Sequence record: NC_049947.1
Reading direction: 5' to 3' (one strand)
DNA: 46,703 nucleotides
Source: Escherichia phage 1H12
The notes below the pieces were generated by a model. It saw only the letters and a program-made list of their open reading frames with translations. It ran no database searches and was not told the origin of the DNA. A program made the position numbers and the translations under genes. Below are positions 15,522 to 45,625 of the stretch, one piece after another. Positions within the stretch are counted from its first letter, which is position 1, and each line of letters starts with the position of its first letter.

Positions 15522-18500
15522 ATGGGTAAAGGCAGCAGTAAGGGGCATACCCCGCGCGAAGCGAAGGACAACCTGAAGTCCACGCAGCTGCTGAGTGTGA
15601 TCGATGCCATCAGCGAAGGGCCGGTTGAAGGTCCGGTGGATGGATTAAAAAGCGTGCTGCTGAACAGTACGCCGGTGCTGGACAGTGAGGGGAATACCAA
15701 TATCTTCGGTGTCACGGTGGTGTTCCGGGCAGGTGAGCAGGAGCAGACTCCGCCGGAGGGGTTTGAATCCTCCGGCTCCGAGACGGTGCTGGGTACGGAA
15801 GTGAAATATGACATGCCGATCACCCGCACCATCACGTCGGCAAACATCGACCGTCTGCGCTTTACTTTCGGCGTGCAGGCACTGGTGGAAACTACCTCAA
15901 AGGGGGACAGGAATCCGTCGGAAGTCCGTCTGCTGGTTCAGATACAGCGTAATGGTGGCTGGGTGACGGAAAAAGACATCACCATTAAAGGCAAAACCAC
16001 CTCGCAGTATCTGGCCTCGGTGGTGGTGGATAACCTGCCGCCGCGCCCGTTTAATATCCGGATGCGCAGGATGACGCCGGACAGCACCACAGACCAGCTG
16101 CAGAACAAAACGCTCTGGTCGTCATACACCGAAATCATCGATGTGAAACAGTGCTACCCGAACACGGCACTGGTCGGCGTGCAGGTGGACTCGGAACAGT
16201 TCGGCAGTCAGCAGGTGAGCCGTAATTATCATCTTCGCGGGCGCATTCTGCAGGTGCCGTCGAACTATAACCCGCAGACGCGGCAATACAGCGGTATCTG
16301 GGACGGAACGTTAAAACCGGCATACAGCAACAACATGGCCTGGTGTCTGTGGGATATGCTGACCCATCCGCGCTACGGCATGGGAAAACGTCTTGGTGCG
16401 GCGGATGTGGATAAATGGGCGCTGTATGTCATCGGCCAGTACTGCGACCAGTCGGTGCCGGACGGCTTTGGCGGCACGGAGCCGCGCATTACCTGTAATG
16501 CGTACCTGACCACACAGCGCAAGGCGTGGGATGTGCTCAGTGATTTCTGCTCGGCGATGCGCTGTATGCCGGTATGGAACGGGCAGACGCTGACGTTCGT
16601 GCAGGACCGACCATCAGATAAGGTGTGGACCTATAACCGCAGTAATGTGGTGATGCCGGATGATGGCGCGCCGTTCCGCTACAGCTTCAGCGCCCTGAAG
16701 GACCGCCATAATGCCGTTGAGGTGAACTGGATTGACCCGGATAACGGCTGGGAGACGGCGACAGAGCTCGTGGAGGATACGCAGGCCATTGCCCGTTACG
16801 GTCGTAATGTCACGAAGATGGATGCCTTTGGCTGTACCAGTCGGGGGCAGGCACACCGCGCCGGGCTGTGGCTGATTAAAACGGAACTGCTGGAAACGCA
16901 GACCGTGGATTTCAGCGTCGGCGCAGAAGGGCTTCGCCATGTACCGGGCGATGTTATTGAAATCTGTGATGATGACTATGCCGGTATCAGCACCGGTGGT
17001 CGTGTGCTGGCGGTGAACAGCCAGACCCGGACGCTGACGCTCGACCGTGAAATCACGCTGCCATCCTCCGGTACCACGCTGATAAGCCTGGTTGACGGAA
17101 GTGGCAATCCGGTCAGCGTGGAGGTTCAGTCCGTCACCGACGGCGTGAAGGTAAAAGTGAGCCGTGTTCCTGACGGTGTTGCTGAATACAGCGTATGGGG
17201 GCTGAAGCTGCCGACGCTGCGCCAGCGCCTGTTCCGCTGTGTGAGTATCCGGGAGAACGATGACGGTACGTATGCCATCACCGCCGTGCAGCATGTACCG
17301 GAAAAAGAAGCCATCGTGGATAACGGGGCGCACTTTGACGGCGACCAGAGCGGCACGGTGAATGGTGTCACGCCGCCAGCGGTGCAGCACCTGACCGCCG
17401 AAGTCACCACAGACAGCGGGGAATATCAGGTGCTGGCGCGATGGGACACGCCGAAGGTGGTGAAGGGCGTGAGCTTCCTGCTTCGCCTTACCGTGGCAGC
17501 GGACGACGGCAGTGAGCGGCTGGTCAGCATGGCCCGGACGACGGAAACCACATACCGCTTCAGGCAACTGGCGCTGGGGAACTACAGGCTGACAGTCCGG
17601 GCGGTAAATGCGTGGGGGCAGCAGGGCGATCCGGCATCGGTATCGTTCCGGATTGCCGCACCGGCAGCGCCGTCGCAGATTGAGCTGACACCGGGGTATT
17701 TTCAGATAACCGCCACGCCCCATCTTGCCGTTTATGATCCGACGGTACAGTTTGAGTTCTGGTTCTCGGAAAAGCGGATTGCGGATATCAGGCAGGTTGA
17801 AACCACAGCCCGCTATCTTGGCACGGCGCTGTACTGGATAGCTGCCAGTATCAATATCAAACCGGGCCATGATTATTATTTTTACATCCGCAGTGTGAAC
17901 ACCGTTGGCAAATCGGCATTTGTGGAGGCTGTTGGCCAGCCGAGTGATGATGCATCCGGCTATCTGGATTTTTTCAAAGGCGAGATAGGGAAAAGCCATC
18001 TGGCTCAGGAGCTGTGGACGCAGATTGATAACGGTCAGCTTGCGCCTGACCTGGCTGAAATCAGGACGTCCATTACGGATGTCAGCAATGAAATCACGCA
18101 GACCGTCAATAAGAAACTGGAAGACCAGAGTGCGGCAATTCAGCAGATACAGAAGGTTCAGGTTGATACAAATAATAACCTGAACAGCATGTGGGCTGTG
18201 AAGCTGCAGCAGATGCAGGACGGACGCCTTTATATCGCGGGTATTGGTGCCGGTATTGAGAACACCCCTGACGGCATGCAGAGTCAGGTGCTGCTGGCGG
18301 CGGACAGGATTGCGATGATTAATCCTGCGAATGGCAATACAAAGCCGATGTTTGTTGGGCAGGGCGATCAGATATTCATGAACGAAGTGTTCCTGAAATA
18401 TCTGACGGCTCCCACCATTACCAGCGGTGGCAATCCCCCAACGTTTTCACTGACACCTGATGGTCGACTTTCTGCGAGAAATGCGGATATCAGCGGTAAC

Positions 18501-19004
18501 GTGAATGCGAACTCCGGGACGCTCAATAATGTCACGATTAACCAGAACTGTCGGATTCTGGGAAAACTGTCAGCTAACCAGATTGAAGGTGATATTGTCA
18601 AAACGGTGGGAAAAGCCTTTCCGAGAAATGGCAGTTATGCCAGCGGTACAATAACGGTCACTGTGTACGATGACCAGGCTTTTGACCGTCAGATAGTCGT
18701 CCCCCCCGTTCTGTTTCGCGGTGGTAAGCATGAAAACTTCAACAGCAACAACCAACAGTCATACTGGTATTCAACCTGTAAGCTGCAGGTGCTGAAGAAC
18801 GGACAGGAAATCTTTCAGCAACCCGCGACGGATGTCAGCAGGGTATTTTCATCAGTCATTGATATGCCTGCCGGACACGGCCATGTCACCCTGACTTTCA
18901 ATGTTTCTTCATATGGTGCAAATAACTGGACGCCAACGACCAGTATCAGCGACCTTCTTGTTGTCGTGATGAAGAAATCAACAGCCGGCATCAGTATCAG
19001 TTGA
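15522..19004 (+). CDS. J: tail tip / host specificity protein J (central fiber)
   Basis: 1160-aa ORF; lambda gpJ-like over most of its length but with a divergent last ~150 residues (receptor-binding region). Confidence 0.95.
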
Positions 19005-19023
19005 ATTTTAAAACCCAAATTCG

Positions 19024-19049
19024 GGCACCAGAAATGGTGCCTTTTTTAT
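19024..19049 (+). terminator. putative rho-independent terminator after J
   Basis: Hairpin ggcacc-agaaat-ggtgcc followed by a T-run. Confidence 0.55.
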
Positions 19050-19062
19050 TTGTGGAGTGAAT

Positions 19063-21084
19063 ATGGCAGTACAGATTTCAGGTGTGCTGAAAGACGGTGC
19101 AGGAAAACCGATACAGAACTGCACCATTCAGCTCAAAGCAAAACGTAACAGCACCACAGTTGTGGTGAACACGGTGGCCTCAGAAAATCCGGATGAAGCC
19201 GGACGTTACAGCATGGATGTTGAGTATGGCCAGTACAGCGTCGCCCTGCTGGTTGAAGGTTTTCCGCCTTCACATGCCGGGACCATCACCGTGTATGAGG
19301 ATTCTAAGCCGGGGACATTGAATGATTTTCTGGGCGCTGCAACAGAAGATGATGTTTGTCCGGAGGCACTGTATCGTTTTGAAAAGATGGTGGAAGAGGC
19401 GGCACGCAACGCTGAAGCCGCCTCTCAGAGCGCAGCGGCAGCAAAGAAATCAGAAACAGCAGCGGCATCGTCCAGGAACGCGGCGAAAACATCAGAGACG
19501 AATGCAGGTAACAGCGCGAAAGCGGCAGCTTCTTCAAAAACAGCCGCACAAAACGCAGCAACAGCGGCAGAACGTTCAGAGACAAATGCCCGTGCGTCAG
19601 AAGAAGCCTCCGCAGACAGTGAAGAGGCTTCCCGCCGTAATGCAGAGTCAGCCGCTGAAAATGCCGGAGTCGCCACCACAAAAGCGCGGGAGGCCGCAGC
19701 AGACGCAACAAAGGCCGGGCAGAAAAAGGATGAGGCTCTGTCGGCAGCGACACGAGCTGAAAAGGCGGCAGACCGCGCAGAAGCCGCAGCGGAAGTGACT
19801 GCAGAGCCCTGTGCGAATATAGTGCCGCCGCTGCCTGATGTGTGGATACCGTTTAACGATTCACTGGATATGATTACGGGTTTTTCGCCATCTTATAAAA
19901 AGATAGTTATTGGTGACGATGAAATAACAATGCCAGGCGACAAGATTGTTAAGTTTAAACGTGCTTCAACAGCAACGTATATTAATAAGTCCGGCCAACT
20001 CAAGCTTGCTGAAGTTGACGAACCGCGATTTGAGCGCGATGGCTTATTGATTGAAGGACAGAGGACAAATTATCTGAGGAACTCAAATAAACCAGACTCA
20101 TGGACTGTTCATTCCGCACTGAATAAAACATTTGGCACTGATAAACAGGGGTTCAATTATGCCACGGTGACACCCACGGAAAGTATAGTGGGAACAACAG
20201 GTGGCTATACTGTGCATGGTGTGGTTGCAGCAGACAGATTCCCGCTGGCAAGTGGTGAATGTTTCACTTTTTCGTGCCGGGTTAAAGGCGCTAAAGCACG
20301 ATGCAGGTTAAGAGTTTCAGTTATTATTGGTGGAACAGATACCTTCTCTGCTGACTCTTATCTTGATCTGGATACCCGGATCGCAACAGTAAGCGGTAAT
20401 ACATCCCTTATAACAGCCAAAGCTGAACAACAGGGCGAGTGGACCTACTATGAGGCCACTTATACAGCTAATACGGACATTGATACCGTTAACTGTGCTT
20501 TTTATATGACAAATAAAATAAGTAATGAGCCATTCTATGATGACTCAACATTAACCATGACGACGCCGCAAATTGAACTGGGCAATACGGCATCGTCATT
20601 TATTGTAACTACAATGCCAACAACACGCGCAAGTGATGTAGTTACTATCCCATCGCAGAATAACCTGTCAACACGGCCTTTTACGGTATTGTGCGAAGTA
20701 AGCAGGAACTGGAGTACACCGCCCAATGTTGCGCCAAGGATATTTGATGTTGGAGGGCACAGTATTGATGATAATTATTTATCGCTGGGGTTTGTTGCAA
20801 CAGGAAAGATAAGCGCCAACGTAGGAATGGTTCAGCCACAAATTGCCTCAGATGGAGAAAGGTTCATTGTGGGTGTGAGAGCTAAATCTGATTTATCAGT
20901 AAATGCAATATGCAATGGTAATTATACAACAAACCTTAATGGTAAAATATTTGGAGTTACAGCAACATCGTACCGGTTTGGTGGGCAGACCGCAGCAGGA
21001 ACGCGTCATTTGTTTGGACACATCAGAAATTTCAGAGTCTGGTTTAAAGAATTAAATGACAGGCAAATCAAGGAGGCAGTATGA
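19063..21084 (+). CDS. stf: side tail fiber protein (lambda Stf-like N-terminus, unrelated C-terminal domain)
   Basis: MAVQISGVLKDGAGKPIQNCTIQLKAKRNSTTVVVNTV matches the lambda Stf N-terminus; Ala/Ser-rich low-complexity middle; C-terminal ~430 aa not lambda-like. Confidence 0.85.
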   Translation: MAVQISGVLKDGAGKPIQNCTIQLKAKRNSTTVVVNTVASENPDEAGRYSMDVEYGQYSVALLVEGFPPSHAGTITVYEDSKPGTLNDFLGAATEDDVCPEALYRFEKMVEEAARNAEAASQSAAAAKKSETAAASSRNAAKTSETNAGNSAKAAASSKTAAQNAATAAERSETNARASEEASADSEEASRRNAESAAENAGVATTKAREAAADATKAGQKKDEALSAATRAEKAADRAEAAAEVTAEPCANIVPPLPDVWIPFNDSLDMITGFSPSYKKIVIGDDEITMPGDKIVKFKRASTATYINKSGQLKLAEVDEPRFERDGLLIEGQRTNYLRNSNKPDSWTVHSALNKTFGTDKQGFNYATVTPTESIVGTTGGYTVHGVVAADRFPLASGECFTFSCRVKGAKARCRLRVSVIIGGTDTFSADSYLDLDTRIATVSGNTSLITAKAEQQGEWTYYEATYTANTDIDTVNCAFYMTNKISNEPFYDDSTLTMTTPQIELGNTASSFIVTTMPTTRASDVVTIPSQNNLSTRPFTVLCEVSRNWSTPPNVAPRIFDVGGHSIDDNYLSLGFVATGKISANVGMVQPQIASDGERFIVGVRAKSDLSVNAICNGNYTTNLNGKIFGVTATSYRFGGQTAAGTRHLFGHIRNFRVWFKELNDRQIKEAV

Positions 21085-21359
21085 AAGATTTAACTTTGAA
21101 ATTTCCTGGTAACAGAGAGTTTAAATCCTTCCTGTCATCTCTTGACTGGGAGGAGGATGAAGACCTCCAGAATAAACTGTTAGTCGATGAAATTGGTTTC
21201 ACCTACACAGAAACAGGGGTAACAGAAGAGGGAGAACCTGTCTGTGTCCGGAATGACGGTTATTTTGTCAACATTCGCATTCTTGATGACTTGTTTGATG
21301 TTTCTGTATTCTCTGATTATGTCGTGGAGCTGGAAACACCGCTTCGGGAATGGAGCTGA
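21081..21359 (+). CDS. hypothetical acidic protein, start overlaps stf stop (possible fiber assembly factor)
   Basis: 92-aa ORF whose ATG overlaps the stf TGA (ATGA); no recognisable lambda Tfa sequence. Confidence 0.5.
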   Translation: MKDLTLKFPGNREFKSFLSSLDWEEDEDLQNKLLVDEIGFTYTETGVTEEGEPVCVRNDGYFVNIRILDDLFDVSVFSDYVVELETPLREWS

Positions 21360-21371
21360 AAGGAGGAAATA

Positions 21372-21665
21372 ATGGATATAAGCCCCTTACTTCATGCACT
21401 TTGTGCTGTGGCTGCGCAGATACTGGTTGGTCTTTTTACCGGAAACTGGGCTTACGGAGCGATAGCCGGTTGTACGTTCTTCATTGCGCGTGAACATACC
21501 CAGGCAGAATATCGCTGGATTGAAATGTTCGGGCATGGCAAGCGAATGAATATGCCGTGGTGGGGCGGTTTTGATCCGCGAGCTTGGGATGTGGCAAGCC
21601 TGATGGATTTTGCTGTGCCGGTGGTGGCGTGTCTGCTGGTCTGGCTGTTGGTTAATCGTGGGTGA
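21372..21665 (+). CDS. hypothetical small membrane protein (two predicted hydrophobic helices)
   Basis: 97-aa ORF with RBS ggaggaaat 4 nt upstream; hydrophobic N- and C-terminal segments. Confidence 0.5.
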   Translation: MDISPLLHALCAVAAQILVGLFTGNWAYGAIAGCTFFIAREHTQAEYRWIEMFGHGKRMNMPWWGGFDPRAWDVASLMDFAVPVVACLLVWLLVNRG

Positions 21666-21756
21666 AAAAAGGTGAGCTGTATATGCAACGGAGGAAGAAA
21701 CCCCGTTGCTGGAAGCCAGGAAAAAGTATCGGGTGTTGCTGTCCTCGGATGTTGTG

Positions 21757-22614
21757 CTAATTGGGTGATAACAGATCCTGTGTATGGGAGTTTCCCTTTT
21801 TGCGTGCGTTGATGCTGGTAACGGCAAACGTCATGATGAACAAAACCGCGAATAAGACGACAATCGTCGGAGCTGGTGCGCTGTCGATAAAAAAGGACAA
21901 CCAGACACCAGTCATTGACACTATTACCGATATGCCAGTCGCCAGTAGGAGCGCAATATGAAAGCGTTGTGTCAGGAGTACCGCAATGGCGCCAGGCGCA
22001 ATGAGCAGAGAAATGGAGAGAATGATACCTACCGCTTTCAGCGTCGCCACAATGGTCAGAGAGACCATGCACAGCAGCCCATAATGCAGCCATCTCGTAT
22101 GCAAACCGCTTACCTGCGCCTGTTGATAATCAAAGCTGAACAGCAAAAAATCCCGCCATTTTACGCTAATAACAAGTGTAACCAGCCCGGCAATAATCAT
22201 CGTCTGGATTATATCGCCGATGGTTATCCCGAGCATGTCGCCGAAAAGAATATGGTCAAGATGTACGTCTGGTTTGACTGCAATATACAAGATCAGACCT
22301 GCGGCAAACATGCCAGAAAAAACAATCCCCATCACTGTATCTTGCTTGATTCGGCTGTTGTCTTTCAGGTATCCCGTCGCCACCGCGCAGAATACTCCGG
22401 CGACGAATGCCCCTGTAGCCAAAGGTAACCCCAGAATCCAGGCAAGCACGATGCCAGGAAAAACCGCATGACTCATCGCGTCACCCATCAGTGCCCAACC
22501 TTTCAGGACCAGAAAGACCGACAGCAGCGCACAGGGTATGGAAACTACCAGTGAAATCAGCAGTGCGTGACTCATAAAGGTGAACTGCAGTGGCTCCAGT
22601 AATAATGCCATCAT
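21757..22614 (-). CDS. sitD: manganese/iron ABC transporter permease SitD
   Basis: 285-aa polytopic membrane ORF; ABC-3 metal permease family; fourth gene of a sitABCD-like operon. Confidence 0.85.
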   Translation of the reverse strand: MMALLLEPLQFTFMSHALLISLVVSIPCALLSVFLVLKGWALMGDAMSHAVFPGIVLAWILGLPLATGAFVAGVFCAVATGYLKDNSRIKQDTVMGIVFSGMFAAGLILYIAVKPDVHLDHILFGDMLGITIGDIIQTMIIAGLVTLVISVKWRDFLLFSFDYQQAQVSGLHTRWLHYGLLCMVSLTIVATLKAVGIILSISLLIAPGAIAVLLTQRFHIALLLATGISVIVSMTGVWLSFFIDSAPAPTIVVLFAVLFIMTFAVTSINARKKGNSHTQDLLSPN

Positions 22615-23468
22615 GAGCGATCCTCCAGCGCCTTATGCGCACGCCGACGATTTGCCAAAAGCCCATGGGTGGGCGCAAAGACAAATGCTAAAAGAAACAG
22701 CAGTGTCTGCGCCACCACGATGATTCCACCTGTCGCGCCGTCCAGAAAGTAACTGACCCACGCGCCGAGGAAACTGGTTACACTGCCAATAGTTACAGCA
22801 ATCATGAGCAGGCGGGGAAAACGATCGGTTAACAACCATGCTGTTGCACCGGGAGTCACCACCAGACAGATCACCAGAAAGGCACCAACCGTTTGCAGCG
22901 CCGCAACGGTCGAAACCGACAGCAGGGTGAAGAAGAGGAGTTTTAATCTGCCCGGATGCAATCCAATAGCACGGGCGTGATTCTCGTCGAAAAAGGTCAC
23001 CATAAGATCTTTCCATTTGAAAAAAAGCACGATGATCGAGAGAATGCCAATGATAGTGAGTTGCAGGATATCCGCCGGATCGATTGCCAGAATATTGCCC
23101 AGGACGATGGTCTGAATGTTCACAGATGTCGGGTTCAATGACACCATAAACAGCCCCAGGCCAAAAAAGGACGAGAAGATCAGACCGATGATGGCATCTT
23201 CTTTTAAGCGGGTGCGTTGGTTAAGAAACAGCATGCTGCCCGCAGCCAGTCCGCCGGAAAAGAAGGCTCCCAGAGAAAACGGAAGCCCCAGCATATATGC
23301 CCCCGCAACACCCGGGACAATAGAGTGCGACAACGCATCGCCAATCAGCGACCAGCCTTTTAGCATCAGATAGCATGACAGGAAAGCGCAGAGACCGCCG
23401 ACCATCGCCGAGACCCACATCGCATTGAGCATATATTCATAGCTGAAGGGTTCCAGTAGCACGTTCAT
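22611..23468 (-). CDS. sitC: manganese/iron ABC transporter permease SitC
   Basis: 285-aa polytopic membrane ORF, stop/start overlap with neighbours. Confidence 0.85.
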
Positions 23469-24292
23469 CTTTCTTCCCTCTGCACCGCTGACGGTCGATG
23501 AGCCACAAAAGGGCGTTCATCGTCAGTAATAATGCTTTCTTCCGAGCCGTTAAGTGTGACATGGCGCAGTACGCCGCTAAAAGCCAGCTCTAGGTTCTCG
23601 GCTGTAAAAGTGGTGTCTGTCGGCCCGCTTGCCAGGACGGTGCCTTTGACCATGACCGTATAATCGCAAAATGTCGTGACGGATCCGAGATTGTGTGTTG
23701 AGACAAGCATCGTTTTGCCTTCCGCGCGTAACTCCCTCAACAGGCTGATGATTTTGGCTTCGGTTTTCACATCAACGCCAGTAAAAGGTTCATCCAGCAG
23801 GATCACATCACCCTGCTGTGCAATCGCTCTCGCCAGAAAGACGCGTTTCTTTTGTCCACCGGAAAGCTCGCCGATTTGTCGATGGCGAAAATTCACCATA
23901 TCGACACGTTCCAGCGCATCGGTGACAATTTGACGATCCCTCTTTTTGGCGATACGCAACATACCCATATGCCCATAGCGGCCCATCATCACCACATCTT
24001 CCACCAGTACAGGAAATGACCAGTCAACATCTTCTGACTGAGGGACGTAGGCAACCAGGTTTTTCTGTAACGCCTGTCGCGTGGGAATACCCAGAACAGA
24101 TATCTTTCCGCTGGTCAGACGCACAAATCCCATAATCGCTTTAAACAACGTCGATTTTCCGGAACCGTTTACCCCAACCAGAGCGGCAATAGATCCACTT
24201 GGTACTGTGAAGGATGCATCGCGCAGTGCTGTGTGCCCGTTACGCCAGGTGACAGTAACATCATTAACGACAATGCCTGCAGATTGCATCAT
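23465..24292 (-). CDS. sitB: manganese/iron ABC transporter ATP-binding protein SitB
   Basis: 275-aa ORF with Walker [10 protein letters not shown] and an ABC signature motif. Confidence 0.9.
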
Positions 24293-25206
24293 TATTTCTC
24301 CCTTTTCCCAGCTTTAATTCCCTGTACCAGCGTACTGGTAGTAACCTTAAGAAGGTCGATATACGTCGGTACCGGGCCGTTTTCTGTGCTCAGGGAATCG
24401 ACATAGAGCACACCGCCGTAGTGTGCGCCGGTTTCACGCGCAACCTGACGCGCTGGTTTATCGGAAATCGTACTCTCGCTAAAGACTGCCGGGATATGAT
24501 TTTTCTTAACTATATCAACAACCTTACGTACCTGCTGCGGTGTTCCTTGTTGATCGGCATTAATCGGCCACAGATAAAGCTCTTTTAGCCCCAAATCGCG
24601 TGCGAGATAAGAAAAAGCCCCTTCACTGGTGACCATCCATCGCTGATTCTCAGGGAGTTCCGTAATCTGCTTACGCAGGGGGGCAAGGGTTTGGGTAATC
24701 TTGGCTTTATAAGTATCGGCATTGCGTTGGTAGGTTTGTGCATTTGCCGGATCGTATTTTATCAACGCATCACGAATATTATCGACGTAAATCAGAGCAT
24801 TATCTGGCGACATCCATGCATGGGGGTTAGGTTTGCCCTCATAGGGTCCTTCGGTGATCCCTACAGGCGTCACACCCGAAGAGACAATTACTTCTGGAAC
24901 CCCATTGAGATGCTGGTAAAAGCGTTGGAACCACAATTCCAGATTCATACCATTGGCGAGAATCAGTTGTGCCCCCTGCGCACGTTTAATATCGCCAGGG
25001 GTAGGCTGATACTCATGAATTTCTGCACCAGGCTTGGTTATGGATGAGACTTCTGCAGCATCTCCCGCCACGTTTTTGGCCATATCCGCGATGATGGTAA
25101 ATGTTGTAATGACCTTGAATTTTTCAGTTGCACTTGCCTGAAATGCGATCGAGCAGGTGAGTGCGAGCCCCCCCAAGAGCATGGTTACTTTTTTTATCGA
25201 GTGCAT
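24292..25206 (-). CDS. sitA: manganese/iron ABC transporter periplasmic substrate-binding protein SitA
   Basis: 304-aa ORF with an N-terminal signal peptide; TroA/PsaA-like metal-binding protein. Confidence 0.85.
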
Positions 25207-25893: not shown

Positions 25894-26664
25894 GTGATTG
25901 ATACAATGAAAACCTTAAGTGGGAAAGAGTTTAGGAAATTATTTAATCGTTATGAGACAGGATTCTATCTAAGTGAGTTTGAATACTTAAAGGACTTTGA
26001 TCCTTTGTTTCCTGAATGCGTAGGGAAAGAATTAAAGTTGGGTTATAAACGAAAAGTTGATGTATGGTGCGAAGAGGATGCTGCGCTATATGCAGAATTT
26101 ATAGCTACAAAAGAAAGGCTGAAAAGAGGCCGGTTAATCCTAAAAATAAACCAAGTGTGGTCGCGTGTATATCCTGCTTATATTTATGCAATTGAAGAAA
26201 GAATAAATGTCAGGGCAAAGGGGAGAGAGTCATTTAAGTATGAAACTGTGCAAGAAAAACAATGTAAACTTTCCATAATGTTAGATGGTCTGAAAGACCT
26301 TGAATGTGAAATAGCTATGATTTCAAGTGAGTTTGAAATTGAAAAACACTCTATGCACTATTTTTATATGATTTTTGATATTGAACGCTATATAAATGAC
26401 TGCAGTTACTTTGTTTTTTCTGCTGCTAAAGTTGTTAAAGGCGTGATTCAATGCATTGGTTACATTGACAAAAATAACAAAGCAAGTTGCGATGAATTTT
26501 ATTCAGGCAGCTATGAATGCTTGGATGATGATCAGGAAACACTGAACTATTTAAATGAATCATGCGCAGAGGGTATAGACGCTGATAAAGATCTCATCAG
26601 GAAGAATGAGTTATTAGCCTTATCCCTGAAGGAATTGTATCAACTTCTCGTTTCAAAAAAATAA
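25894..26664 (+). CDS. hypothetical protein (AT-rich orphan cargo gene, soluble, Cys-rich)
   Basis: 256-aa ORF in a low-GC island between the sit operon and attP; GTG at 25894 or ATG at 25906; no family recognised. Confidence 0.6.
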   Translation: MIDTMKTLSGKEFRKLFNRYETGFYLSEFEYLKDFDPLFPECVGKELKLGYKRKVDVWCEEDAALYAEFIATKERLKRGRLILKINQVWSRVYPAYIYAIEERINVRAKGRESFKYETVQEKQCKLSIMLDGLKDLECEIAMISSEFEIEKHSMHYFYMIFDIERYINDCSYFVFSAAKVVKGVIQCIGYIDKNNKASCDEFYSGSYECLDDDQETLNYLNESCAEGIDADKDLIRKNELLALSLKELYQLLVSKK

Positions 26665-27401: not shown

Positions 27402-28544
27402 CTATGCTGTTTTGATATCTACGATAACCCAGTCTTTACCACGATCATCATTGTATCGGTCGGTCATTTTTCTGGATTTATGGCCTAACAACTTTTGCGT
27501 ATCCAGACCCTGTTCCCGATATAACCGTTCTGACAGAGATCGCTGCTCATGAAATGTGGGCGCAGTTCCTTGCTCCCATTTTATGCCACATTTTTCCCTG
27601 GCCTTTTTAAAAGCCGTTGTCAGAGTATTTGCAGAAACCTGGTCTCCTCTGTTTGCTTGAGAGGTAGTGTGACGGTAATGGACCAGATATTTACTAACAA
27701 CAGCATCCCTGCACTGAGATATAACTTCACGAAGGGTAATATTCAGAGCATCGCATTTCAGGTTAAGCGGAATAGCAAGTTTTGAACCGGTTTTTTCCTG
27801 AGTAATGTGCAACATGTCGTCCCAGATATCAGAGAATTTCAAATTGCAGATATCACCTAAACGTTGTCCAGTAACAAGAGCAAGTAGCATGCCGCATTTT
27901 AAATAGGGCTGCCGTCTGCTTACGCTTTCAAATATTGCCTGCCATTCGGGCAGTGACAATCTTTGGCGGTTTACTCGATTTCGCGGTTGTTTTGTTGCCT
28001 GCGCTGGGTTAAATCCTGGCGGAACATGTCCTGCGTGTTGTGCTTCTTTGAAGACGTCGATCAACACCATTCTCACGACTTGCGCCATCCTGTTATGACC
28101 TTCAGCCTTTACAGCATCAATTATTTCGGCAATATCAAGTGCGGTAATATCCTTGAGGTGTTGCATTCCACAATGCTCACGGAAAAGACGAATGGGTTTG
28201 CCTTTTTGCCGATAGGAGTTGGGTCTTAGTTCATTATGTTGCAGCCTGTCCTCCTGGATAGAAATATATTTATCAAGCCATTCTGTCACCGTAATTTCTG
28301 AGCGCCTGCCTTTCATTCTTTCCAGACGCTCATTGACGCTTAATATTTGTCGGGTACGTTGTTCAGCAATAATGGTATTTGCTTCAGTAGCAACTTGTTT
28401 TGCTTCATTCTCATCAGTTCCTAAGCTATGAAAACGACCGGATAGTGGATGTTTGTATTGCCAATATACCTTTCCGGTTCGCTTATCTAATTTGCAATAT
28501 AAATTGGGTATAGAGATTTTGTGAGATCGGGGTCTAGCAGCCAT
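27402..28544 (-). CDS. int: tyrosine site-specific integrase (icd-targeting)
   Basis: 380-aa ORF with a C-terminal tyrosine recombinase catalytic region (HxxR...Y), adjacent to attP. Confidence 0.9.
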   Translation of the reverse strand: MAARPRSHKISIPNLYCKLDKRTGKVYWQYKHPLSGRFHSLGTDENEAKQVATEANTIIAEQRTRQILSVNERLERMKGRRSEITVTEWLDKYISIQEDRLQHNELRPNSYRQKGKPIRLFREHCGMQHLKDITALDIAEIIDAVKAEGHNRMAQVVRMVLIDVFKEAQHAGHVPPGFNPAQATKQPRNRVNRQRLSLPEWQAIFESVSRRQPYLKCGMLLALVTGQRLGDICNLKFSDIWDDMLHITQEKTGSKLAIPLNLKCDALNITLREVISQCRDAVVSKYLVHYRHTTSQANRGDQVSANTLTTAFKKAREKCGIKWEQGTAPTFHEQRSLSERLYREQGLDTQKLLGHKSRKMTDRYNDDRGKDWVIVDIKTA

Positions 28545-44454: not shown

Positions 44455-44670
44455 ATGAAATCCATGGACAAGTTAACAACGGGCATTGCCTACGGCACCT
44501 CTGCAGGCAGTGCTGGCTACTGGTTTTTACAGTGGCTTGATCAGGTCAGTCCGTCACAGTGGGCGGCGATTGGAGTGCTTGGAAGCCTTGTGTTGGGTTT
44601 TCTCACTTATCTGACAAACCTTTATTTCAAGATTAAAGAAGATAAGCGTAAGGCTGCGAGAGGTGAATAA
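44455..44670 (+). CDS. S: pinholin S (phage 21 S21 type, dual-start Met1/Met4)
   Basis: 71-aa [43 protein letters not shown], near-identical to phage 21 S21. Confidence 0.9.
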
Positions 44671-45167
44671 TGTCGCCATCATTACGCAAGGCTGTAGCAG
44701 CTGCTATTGGTGGTGGGGCTGTTGCCATAGCGTCTGTGCTCATCACTGGTCCGAGTGGTGACGATGGTCTGGAAGGTGTCAGCTACATACCATATAAAGA
44801 TATTGTTGGTGTATGGACTGTATGTCACGGGCATACAGGAAAAGACATCATGCTCGGTAAAACGTATACCAAAGCAGAATGCAAAGCACTCTTGAATAAA
44901 GACCTTGCCACTGTCGCCAGACAAATTAACCCGTACATCAAAGTCGATATACCGGAAACAACGCGCGGCGCTCTTTACTCATTCGTTTACAACGTGGGTG
45001 CTGGCAATTTCAGAACATCGACGCTTCTTCGCAAAATAAACCAGGGCGATATCAAAGGCGCATGTGATCAGTTACGTCGCTGGACATATGCTGGCGGTAA
45101 GCAATGGAAAGGTCTCATGACTCGTCGTGAGATTGAGCGTGAAATCTGTTTGTGGGGTCAGCAATGA
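44670..45167 (+). CDS. R: SAR endolysin (signal-anchor-release lysozyme, phage 21 R21 type)
   Basis: 165-aa ORF with an N-terminal Gly/Ala-rich SAR segment followed by a T4-lysozyme-like domain. Confidence 0.9.
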
Positions 45168-45625
45168 ACAGAGTAACCGCGATTATCTCCGCTCTGGTTA
45201 TCTGCATCATCGTCTGCCTGTCATGGGCTGTTAATCATTACCGTGATAACGCCATTACCTACAAAGCCCAGCGCGACAAAAATGCCAGAGAACTGAAGCT
45301 GGCGAACGCGGCAATTACTGACATGCAGATGCGTCAGCGTGATGTTGCTGCGCTCGATGCAAAATACACGAAGGAGTTAGCTGATGCGAAAGCTGAAAAT
45401 GATGCTCTGCGTGATGATGTTGCCGCTGGTCGTCGTCGGTTGCACATCAAAGCAGTCTGTCAGTCAGTGCGTGAAGCCACCACCGCCTCCGGCGTGGATA
45501 ATGCAGCCTCCCCCCGACTGGCAGACACCGCTGAACGGGATTATTTCACCCTCAGAGAGAGGCTGATCACGATGCAAAAACAACTGGAAGGAACCCAGAA
45601 GTATATTAATGAGCAGTGCAGATAG
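45164..45625 (+). CDS. Rz: i-spanin Rz
   Basis: ATG at 45164; [30 protein letters not shown] matches lambda Rz. Confidence 0.9.
45384..45566 (+). CDS. Rz1: o-spanin Rz1 (embedded in the +1 frame of Rz)
   Basis: 60-aa lipoprotein with lipobox and proline-rich region (VVVGCTSKQ...PPPPPAW), as lambda Rz1. Confidence 0.85.

Follow-up and report, generated by a model that had tools for sequence, protein, structure and literature searches.

A phage 21-type side tail fiber module in Escherichia phage 1H12 with a lectin-like tip, a putative cognate partner protein and a separate, predicted small membrane protein

In bacteriophage lambda, the tail gene J is followed by lom, which is a moron, by the side tail fiber gene stf (orf-401/orf-314) and by tfa. 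Another gene order has been deposited for phage 21 (OL657228.1), in which J is followed by a terminator, a side tail fiber gene, genes for a hypothetical protein and a putative membrane protein, and sitDCBA on the opposite strand. The present analysis concerns the same part of Escherichia phage 1H12 (NC_049947.1; the whole stretch of 46,703 nucleotides (nt) that was analysed is called the window), where a side tail fiber of 673 amino acids (aa) is followed by a 92-aa acidic protein and a 97-aa predicted membrane protein. The whole is read here, with moderate confidence, as a phage 21-type late-operon end in which a lectin tip and its 92-aa partner have replaced the lambda Stf tip and tfa, the 97-aa gene being a separate, host-directed rider. 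Anatomy, homologies, synteny, allele co-variation and purifying selection were established directly, and on this basis glycan binding by the fiber, an accessory or chaperone role for the 92-aa protein and a role for the 97-aa protein are proposed.

The closest described relatives are phage 21 (CPT_21_22, CPT_21_23 and CPT_21_24) and Escherichia virus Lambda_2E9 (LR595860.1), both of which share with 1H12 the gene order J, terminator, fiber, 92-aa gene, 97-aa gene, tfa remnant and sitDCBA. The 2.7-kb cassette region is 100% identical to that of Lambda_2E9 and is also 100% identical in eight further induced gut lambdoid phages, all of the genus Jouyvirus (phage 21 group). With phage 21, 1H12 shares 100% identity in the 97-aa protein, 93.5% in the 92-aa protein and approximately 100% in fiber residues 1-270, whereas the fiber tip is another allele with only 43% identity over residues ~261-673. 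The products are annotated in phage 21 and Lambda_2E9 as fiber, hypothetical protein and putative membrane protein only, and the deposited annotation of both small genes is hypothetical only. Among 5,426 complete E. coli genomes, 515 contain at least 80% of the cassette, and the exact fiber, 92-aa and 97-aa proteins each occur on at least 1,000 contigs. Thus, given these counts and the gene order of phage 21, the arrangement is a common and already deposited phage 21-type fiber module, and no oddity of the 1H12 genome.

When compared with lambda Stf and Tfa, the 1H12 module has a similar N-terminal fiber domain, an Ala-rich shaft, the same place after J and, further downstream in the same transcript, a small accessory gene, but it lacks lom, its distal fiber part is unrelated, its 92-aa protein has no match to the Tfa family or fold, and tfa itself is reduced to a remnant of 20 codons. 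J (15522-19004) is 83% identical to lambda J in tblastn and is separated from the fiber gene by 58 nt. The original prediction, made from the letters of this stretch and its open reading frames (ORFs), had placed a terminator after J and had described lom as absent, and both statements were borne out. An intrinsic-terminator-like element was located in the gap at 19023-19052 (plus strand; hairpin and T-run at 19023-19042) by a terminator scan and by inspection of the sequence. It takes the place of the terminator between lom and stf in lambda, and the same feature is annotated as a terminator in phage 21; lambda Lom gave no tblastn match anywhere in the window. Because the tail of the gap (T-run, ribosome-binding site and stf start codon) aligns with the lambda lom-stf gap, lom is simply absent.

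The side tail fiber gene (19063..21084, plus strand; phrog_1419, E value 1.5e-294) starts at the ATG at 19063 behind GGAG, not at the GTG at 19057, and its product is 100% identical to the Lambda_2E9 fiber and to many E. coli prophage fibers. As had been predicted, its N-terminus is of the lambda Stf type. The tail-attachment domain (residues 1-131, 19063..19455, plus strand) matches PF08400 (E 2.8e-67; 225 bits vs a cut-off of 26.6) and PDB entry 9e7m, the lambda tail fiber N-terminus (E 1.5e-49), and residues 1-110 of lambda orf-401 (the N-terminal part of Stf) show 84.5% identity to the start of the fiber in tblastn. This domain would plug the fiber into the tail tip. An Ala/Glu/Lys-rich shaft (residues ~108-255, 19384..19827, plus strand), recognizable from the translation, from AT skew and a GC peak and from a low-grade match to the Ala-rich part of orf-401, probably forms a trimeric coiled coil. 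The claim of a non-lambda distal domain also held, since lambda orf-314 (the distal part of Stf) had no tblastn match in the window at E<=1e-3; its length had been put at ~430 aa and is instead ~410 aa (residues ~261-673).

A domain search of the fiber C-terminus had been proposed together with the original prediction, and it returned a domain similar to the spike fiber of a gene transfer agent (GTA), followed by a LamG-like jelly roll. These assignments were made by profile searches, and a homolog search with the fiber tip gave 100%-identical matches only. The first domain (residues ~265-527, 19855..20643, plus strand) is homologous to the head spike fiber Rcc01080 of the Rhodobacter GTA (RcGTA): NCBIfam NF048003 (GTA_spike_fiber) matches residues 329-523 with 66.8 bits (cut-off 36), a profile built from 22 diverse tips finds PDB 6tb9 (Rcc01080) with an E value of 8.4e-33 over ~260 positions, and a weak CBM_4_9 match is also present. 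The second domain (residues ~524-670, 20632..21072, plus strand) resembles a LamG/concanavalin-A-like jelly roll. PF13385 spans its full model length on the 1H12 fiber and scores below its gathering cut-off there (E 4.5e-4; 20.8 bits vs 27.6), and it matches 13 of the 22 tip family members (best E 5.3e-10) and a homolog from Chelativorans (E 9.6e-10). Homology to Rcc01080 extends over ~260 residues, but the RcGTA protein is a free protein on the base of the capsid spike, whereas in 1H12 the domain is fused to a tail-fiber shaft and is followed by the LamG-like domain.

The tip family was found in 225 phage records. Identity between the 1H12 and phage 21 fibers is approximately 100% up to residue 270, falls to 10-50% over residues 330-640 and rises again to 80% over the last 30 residues. 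From this drop in the core and the high identity at both ends, residues ~330-640 appear to be a swappable specificity cassette between conserved recombination arms.

Capsular polysaccharide is bound by the head spike fiber of RcGTA (PMC10218006), the C-terminal tip of Gp22 of the T5-like phage IrisVonRoten has been described as a protruding 'galectin-like' domain (PMC11990801), and the lateral fibers of T5-like and related siphoviruses are thought to bind O antigen (PMC8594841). The Gp22 tip is 42.5% identical to the 1H12 fiber tip. By analogy with these three cases, the 1H12 tip probably binds a surface glycan (O antigen or capsule) in a reversible manner. The two-domain lectin-like tip would then provide fast reversible adsorption to polysaccharide, and J would provide irreversible binding. 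The 1H12 fiber is presented as a fiber of a known kind, the lectin-tipped lateral fiber.

The same lectin-type tip, followed by a homolog of the 92-aa protein whose gene overlaps the fiber stop, is found in IrisVonRoten (Bas32; Gp22-Gp23-Gp24) and in Drexlerviridae, Queuovirinae, Dhillonvirus and Vequintavirinae. These phages differ from 1H12 in that they add a distal self-chaperoned fiber, lack the 97-aa gene and have fiber N-termini that suit other tail types.

In 1H12, the 92-aa gene (21081..21359, plus strand; phrog_1361) encodes an acidic cytoplasmic alpha/beta protein. It had been predicted to be acidic and translationally coupled to the fiber, and both features were confirmed: the isoelectric point is 4.05, with 22 Asp and Glu residues vs 8 Lys and Arg residues, and the ATG overlaps the fiber stop codon (ATGA) behind AAGGAGG. 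The AlphaFold2 (AF2) model has a predicted local distance difference test (pLDDT) score of 90, and pairwise ratios of nonsynonymous to synonymous substitution rates (dN/dS) of 0.32-0.41 reveal purifying selection. The gene was detected by tblastn in 142 phage records and abuts a fiber gene in all of the matches listed, and each of the 80 IMG/VR loci has its start within 0-3 nt of the stop of a fiber of the same tip family. Homologs identified with a hidden Markov model follow the same fiber type in the rV5-like phage CarlMeissner (E 6e-18) and the T5-like phage SelmaRatti (E 1e-14), and also in the T5-like IrisVonRoten. The pairing of fiber and 92-aa gene thereby occurs in at least six lineages, namely lambdoid prophages, Drexlerviridae, T5-like phages, Queuovirinae, Dhillonvirus and rV5-like phages.

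The alleles are correlated as well. Among 50 distinct trios of fiber, 92-aa and 97-aa proteins, tip identity and identity of the 92-aa protein were correlated with a Spearman coefficient of 0.58, and tips with at least 95% identity were always accompanied by 92-aa proteins with at least 80% identity. The GC content of the fiber tip (0.425) and the 92-aa gene (0.420) is similarly low, vs 0.529 for the 97-aa gene and 0.56 for J. On account of synteny, stop overlap, allele correlation, common low GC content and purifying selection, the 92-aa protein is regarded as a fiber-cognate accessory, which would take the place of Tfa functionally while being unrelated to it in sequence and fold. No Tfa or other family was matched by it in Pfam, NCBIfam or PADLOC, PDB sequence and profile searches returned nothing relevant, and no resemblance to a solved chaperone or any other solved fold was found. 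The Tfa match that had been named as an outcome against the original prediction was thus not obtained. It was also counted in favor of an accessory role that the Pfam scan detected no Peptidase_S74 self-chaperone domain (PF13884) in the 1H12 fiber, whereas the neighbouring distal fibers of other phages carry this domain. Translational coupling would let the 92-aa protein be made in step with the fiber, and the protein most likely helps the tip to fold or to stay soluble in the cytoplasm; it is less likely to stay bound to the virion. The 92-aa proteins would be an accessory family, so far uncharacterized, that clearly belongs with this fiber type. The suggestion that the small genes are fiber chaperones therefore survives for this gene and is improbable for the 97-aa gene, whose allele identity shows no co-variation with the fiber tip (Spearman 0.05); this difference was the outcome of the proposed check of whether the small genes follow the fiber type.

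Several observations weigh against the accessory role. The tip of phage 21 is only 43% identical to that of 1H12, yet the accompanying 92-aa protein is 93.5% identical. The 92-aa gene follows the conserved 3' arm of the fiber gene and not the variable core of the tip, so that the co-variation may partly reflect linkage. Moreover, a dedicated chaperone may be needless for globular lectin domains, and a Chelativorans fiber homolog was found without a 92-aa gene.

A live alternative assigns the 92-aa protein a structural instead of a chaperone role: as a cap or connector of the proximal fiber, it would serve as docking site for a second, distal fiber and thereby give a branched fiber. A second fiber gene does lie directly after the 92-aa homolog in the T5-like phages IrisVonRoten and SelmaRatti, in KarlJaspers of the Drexlerviridae and in the lambdoid PhiR63_1, and these second fibers have a conserved N-terminus (TxIPxDIxxLK) and a Peptidase_S74 chaperone domain of their own. 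The BASEL 2025 models attach the distal fiber to the proximal fiber, a 92-aa homolog has been named 'tail fiber protein' by its depositors, and the tracking of the conserved C-terminal 30 residues of the fiber, instead of its variable core, would also suit a connector. On the other hand, there is no second fiber gene in the 1H12 window, in phage 21 or in any IMG/VR locus in which both small genes were found. In those loci, the 97-aa gene starts ~16 nt after the 92-aa gene. In all of these genomes, the 92-aa gene has stayed intact, with purifying selection acting on it, in spite of the missing second fiber. Branched fibers of the DT57C type have no such gene either. The connector function is therefore considered doubtful for the 92-aa protein, for which a fiber-cognate accessory role is preferred. 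As a separate observation, the second fibers (locus L004, 4292-5332; L005, 4270-4947; L092, 4566-6314; L093, 4569-6293; also L098 and L100) begin with a sequence of the type M(A/V)T.T.IP.DI..LK and end in a Peptidase_S74 domain; this points to a shared docking motif in branched fibers.

Among the lambdoid prophages of E. coli, the fiber is a common and exchangeable determinant of host range, with the cassette in roughly one in ten complete genomes. Knowledge of the combination of the GTA-spike/LamG tip, recombination arms and the 92-aa partner should be of direct use for the engineering of lambda-based delivery particles and for host-range prediction. A chimeric fiber with a 1H12-type tip would probably need the 92-aa gene alongside.

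The original prediction had placed the two small genes where lambda has tfa. Both are indeed there, but tfa has not been lost completely: downstream of the 97-aa gene, a decayed 3' remnant of a lambda-type tfa (21685..21744, plus strand) encodes 20 codons, ATEEETPLLEARKKYRVLL, with 80% identity to lambda Tfa over 20 aa (tblastn, E 3e-4; also evident in the frame translation). The C-terminus of lambda Tfa reads ATKEETSLLEAWKKYRVLL vs ATEEETPLLEARKKYRVLL in the remnant, and the remnant stretch is identical in phage 21. The remnant shows that the cassette overwrote an ancestral stf-tfa pair, and it gives the position of the right-hand junction. By recombination, tfa and the distal half of the lambda-type stf would have been exchanged for the cassette, with 20 tfa codons left behind.

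The 97-aa gene (21372..21665, plus strand; phrog_1443, UniRef name 'Ybl63') begins 12 nt after the 92-aa ORF, behind a AAAGGAGG ribosome-binding site, and constitutes an independent module. Pairwise dN/dS values are 0.14-0.25. Two hydrophobic helices had been recognized in its product; a membrane protein is still predicted, but with three helices in the AF2 model (residues 4-23, 26-53 and 74-96; pLDDT 93), and it would reside in the inner membrane. At the 90% identity level the family forms 577 clusters, at the 50% level 434, and the representatives listed are all stand-alone proteins of 58-146 aa. A polar set of residues is near-invariant (H8, G29, R40, E41, Q44, E46, W72, D79 and P83; R40, E41 and W72 are invariant in the family alignments), the hydrophobic segments vary, and the family motif can be written as (A/G)REHxQAEYRWI...MPWWGGFDPRxW. 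The family mean of Lys and Arg residues is 5.2 in residues 40-73, 0.02 in the turn between helices 1 and 2 and 0.3 in the C-terminal tail; according to the positive-inside rule, the conserved face at residues 40-73 is predicted to be cytoplasmic. This orientation is opposed by the annotators of phage 21, who predicted two transmembrane domains with the loop outside, i.e., the opposite topology.

No relative of the 97-aa protein was found in Pfam, NCBIfam, PADLOC or the PDB, 47 distant members of the family scanned likewise gave the same result, and the family profile matched nothing among PDB sequences at E<=10. A literature search for 'Ybl63', for the FIGfam and PHROG identifiers and for phage 21 sitABCD with the side tail fiber also returned nothing. 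A weak Pfam match to the PhoR N-terminal domain (E 0.037) was put down to transmembrane composition, and the UniRef name 'prolipoprotein diacylglyceryl transferase' of one Aeromonas member was dropped in view of the lack of a PDB match of the family profile at the same limit. A holin was rejected for the 97-aa protein, as the S21 holin, lysozyme and Rz/Rz1 genes sit elsewhere (44455-45625); a weak match to Phage_holin_8 (E 0.0036) was obtained in 1 of the 47 members. A receptor-blocking lipoprotein like Cor or Llp was also rejected, given the lack of an L-[AS]-[GA]-C lipobox, the three predicted helices, the lack of co-variation and the many types of receptor-binding protein (RBP) encoded upstream. 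A terminator after the 97-aa gene, with a fold z-score of -0.54, was not accepted.

The genomic contexts of the 97-aa family are diverse. None of the examined virulent phages with the fiber and the 92-aa gene (five lineages) has it, and the 92-aa and 97-aa genes are sometimes kept apart by a second fiber gene. In the P22-like phage Gally, the homolog lies between the tailspike gene and int; in the P2-like phiHAP-1, it overlaps the tfa stop and precedes the sheath gene; and in Leclercia and Aeromonas prophages, it abuts P2-type fibers. Further homologs follow Tail_spike_N tailspikes and DUF4376 Tfa-like proteins, lie near a gpJ of 2,520 aa, or follow GTA-spike/LamG fibers in Comamonas, Pantoea and Chelativorans, and partial homologs occur in virulent and jumbo phages. 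Chromosomal homologs are also present. In Aeromonas rivipollensis, A. aquatica, A. media (two genomes) and A. taiwanensis (L007, L101, L103, L107 and L108), the gene lies between pirin and RIO1 kinase genes, in a syntenic site composed of pirin, the homolog, RIO1 kinase and two lipid A acyltransferases, and these copies diverge in step with their neighbours. In sphingomonads, a chromosomal homolog adjoins ligA or pnp (non-prophage copies in sphingomonads and alphaproteobacterial metagenome-assembled genomes: L136, L140, L143 and L144). The lack of allele co-variation, the difference in GC content, the absence from virulent phages, the unrelated RBP neighbours and the chromosomal copies together mean that the two small genes are not one unit, and that the 97-aa gene is a module separate from the fiber and the 92-aa gene.

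Beside their receptor-binding genes, phages carry genes directed at the host surface or at incoming phages. Examples are Cor (phi80/N15/T1), Llp (T5), gtrABC and oac (P22, Sf6) and Z/fun (P2), and inner-membrane exclusion proteins include Imm of T4 and gp15 of HK97. The 97-aa gene occupies the same genomic positions and its product is a small membrane protein, but it has no sequence or family relation to any of these, is no lipoprotein, is not tied to a fixed receptor type, is far more conserved across host genera than they are and is also chromosomal. By analogy, a host-directed function at the inner membrane is our best guess for the 97-aa protein, which would act on the host cell and not on fiber assembly. 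The family is indifferent to RBP type and conserved across alpha-, beta- and gamma-proteobacteria, so any target would be a conserved inner-membrane process. The most plausible actions are a receptor-type-independent block to incoming phage or an altered envelope synthesis. The earlier idea of a membrane exclusion or host-range cassette would apply to the 97-aa gene alone at best, and exclusion specifically is a distinct possibility but not the expected outcome. The further proposal that the family represents a new class of effectors, sited at the inner membrane and tied to receptor-binding modules, which would act on a conserved process such as DNA entry or lipid-carrier-linked surface-glycan synthesis, is put forward tentatively; if it were true, it would imply receptor-independent exclusion, or progeny kept from re-adsorbing, with domesticated copies in Aeromonas and sphingomonads. 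Two points speak against an anti-phage role. No promoter-like site of its own was found upstream of the 97-aa gene and no terminator of its own either, which is unusual for an exclusion gene working in the lysogen, and the chromosomal orthologs suggest a housekeeping rather than an anti-phage function.

In an alternative reading, phages carry the 97-aa protein as cargo. It would be a small membrane enzyme or regulator of housekeeping type, with a lipid, a lipid carrier or a sensor kinase as possible target, and would remodel the envelope of the infected or lysogenic cell instead of excluding phages. The copies in Aeromonas and sphingomonads (at ligA or pnp) are vertically inherited and syntenic, the extreme conservation of the polar cluster H8, R40, E41, Q44, E46, W72, D79 and P83 amid variable hydrophobic parts would fit an active or binding site at the membrane interface, and the partial homologs in virulent and jumbo phages are also in keeping with it. 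However, no similarity to an enzyme or regulator family was detected in Pfam, NCBIfam, PADLOC or PDB sequences, 97 residues are very few for an enzyme, and the recurrent place right after receptor-binding genes is the classic position of exclusion and conversion genes. A housekeeping-type cargo enzyme is thus considered rather unlikely, and the host-directed inner-membrane function described above is preferred. In either case, the 97-aa family is widespread, has no Pfam or NCBIfam family and is the one element here that merits follow-up, as a possible new exclusion or envelope-modifying function.

A weaker alternative treats the fiber, the 92-aa gene and the 97-aa gene as one unit, in which the membrane protein serves fiber maturation or delivery or protects the producer cell. 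All IMG/VR loci of sufficient length to cover the 97-aa gene show an intact trio, and the 97-aa gene has no promoter of its own in 1H12. In addition, Comamonas and Pantoea prophages have a GTA-spike/LamG fiber, a small ORF and then a 97-aa homolog, which could mean a functional trio and counts against the separateness of the 97-aa gene, as do the overlap of the homolog with the fiber stop in P2-like prophages, where it resembles a coupled partner, and the similar overlap in Chelativorans. The small ORF of Comamonas and Pantoea weakly resembles the 92-aa protein (hhalign P 0.0017), but jackhmmer did not recover the Comamonas small ORFs as 92-aa homologs, and the link rests on this P value and synteny. 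Against a single unit stand the virulent phages of five lineages that do without the 97-aa gene, the unlinked alleles, the different GC content, and the homologs placed after tailspikes, P2-type fibers, Tfa-like proteins and gpJ or in the chromosomes of Aeromonas and sphingomonads. Both the single unit and a role of the 97-aa protein in fiber maturation are therefore judged improbable, and the 97-aa gene is retained as a separate module. Of the small ORFs between fiber and 97-aa homolog (L104, 5714-6001; L113, 5484-5999; L117 and L124, 5432-5998), three have an extra C-terminal extension of ~75-95 residues.

There is next to no chance that one or both small ORFs are non-coding chance ORFs. Neither has been assigned to a family in Pfam or NCBIfam, and long antisense reading frames run across the 97-aa ORF, but both have strong ribosome-binding sites, dN/dS well below 1, PHROG families, hundreds of protein homologs with conserved motifs and confident AF2 models (pLDDT 90 and 93).

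Several features outside the fiber module were also recorded. A phage 21-type lysis cassette at 44455-45625 contains an S21-family holin (PF04971), a phage lysozyme and Rz with embedded Rz1, which confirms the phage 21 affinity of the late region. A complete sitDCBA operon for an iron/manganese ABC transporter (21757-25206, minus strand) is convergent with the fiber genes and sits between the late-operon end and int (27402-28544), likewise in phage 21; this known virulence-associated metal uptake system is thus cargo of an inducible lambdoid phage. A 256-aa ORF between sitA and int (25894-26664, plus strand) has no Pfam match and is hypothetical in Lambda_2E9 and phage 21 too. Within the Ala-rich part of the fiber gene, the depositors of phage 21 marked a minus-strand motif that resembles a CII-binding site (ttgyN6ttgy; L001, 5544-5557) and may be a chance match. 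At least three kinds of insertion sequence (IS), namely IS4, IS3 family and IS5, disrupt the 2.7-kb region in various E. coli genomes and phages, examples of matching IS-bearing records being NZ_CP071073.1, NZ_CP043406.1, NZ_CP058574.1 and LR595863.1. In phage 4A7, a transposase block truncates the 3' end of the fiber gene, and the 92-aa and 97-aa genes remain intact.

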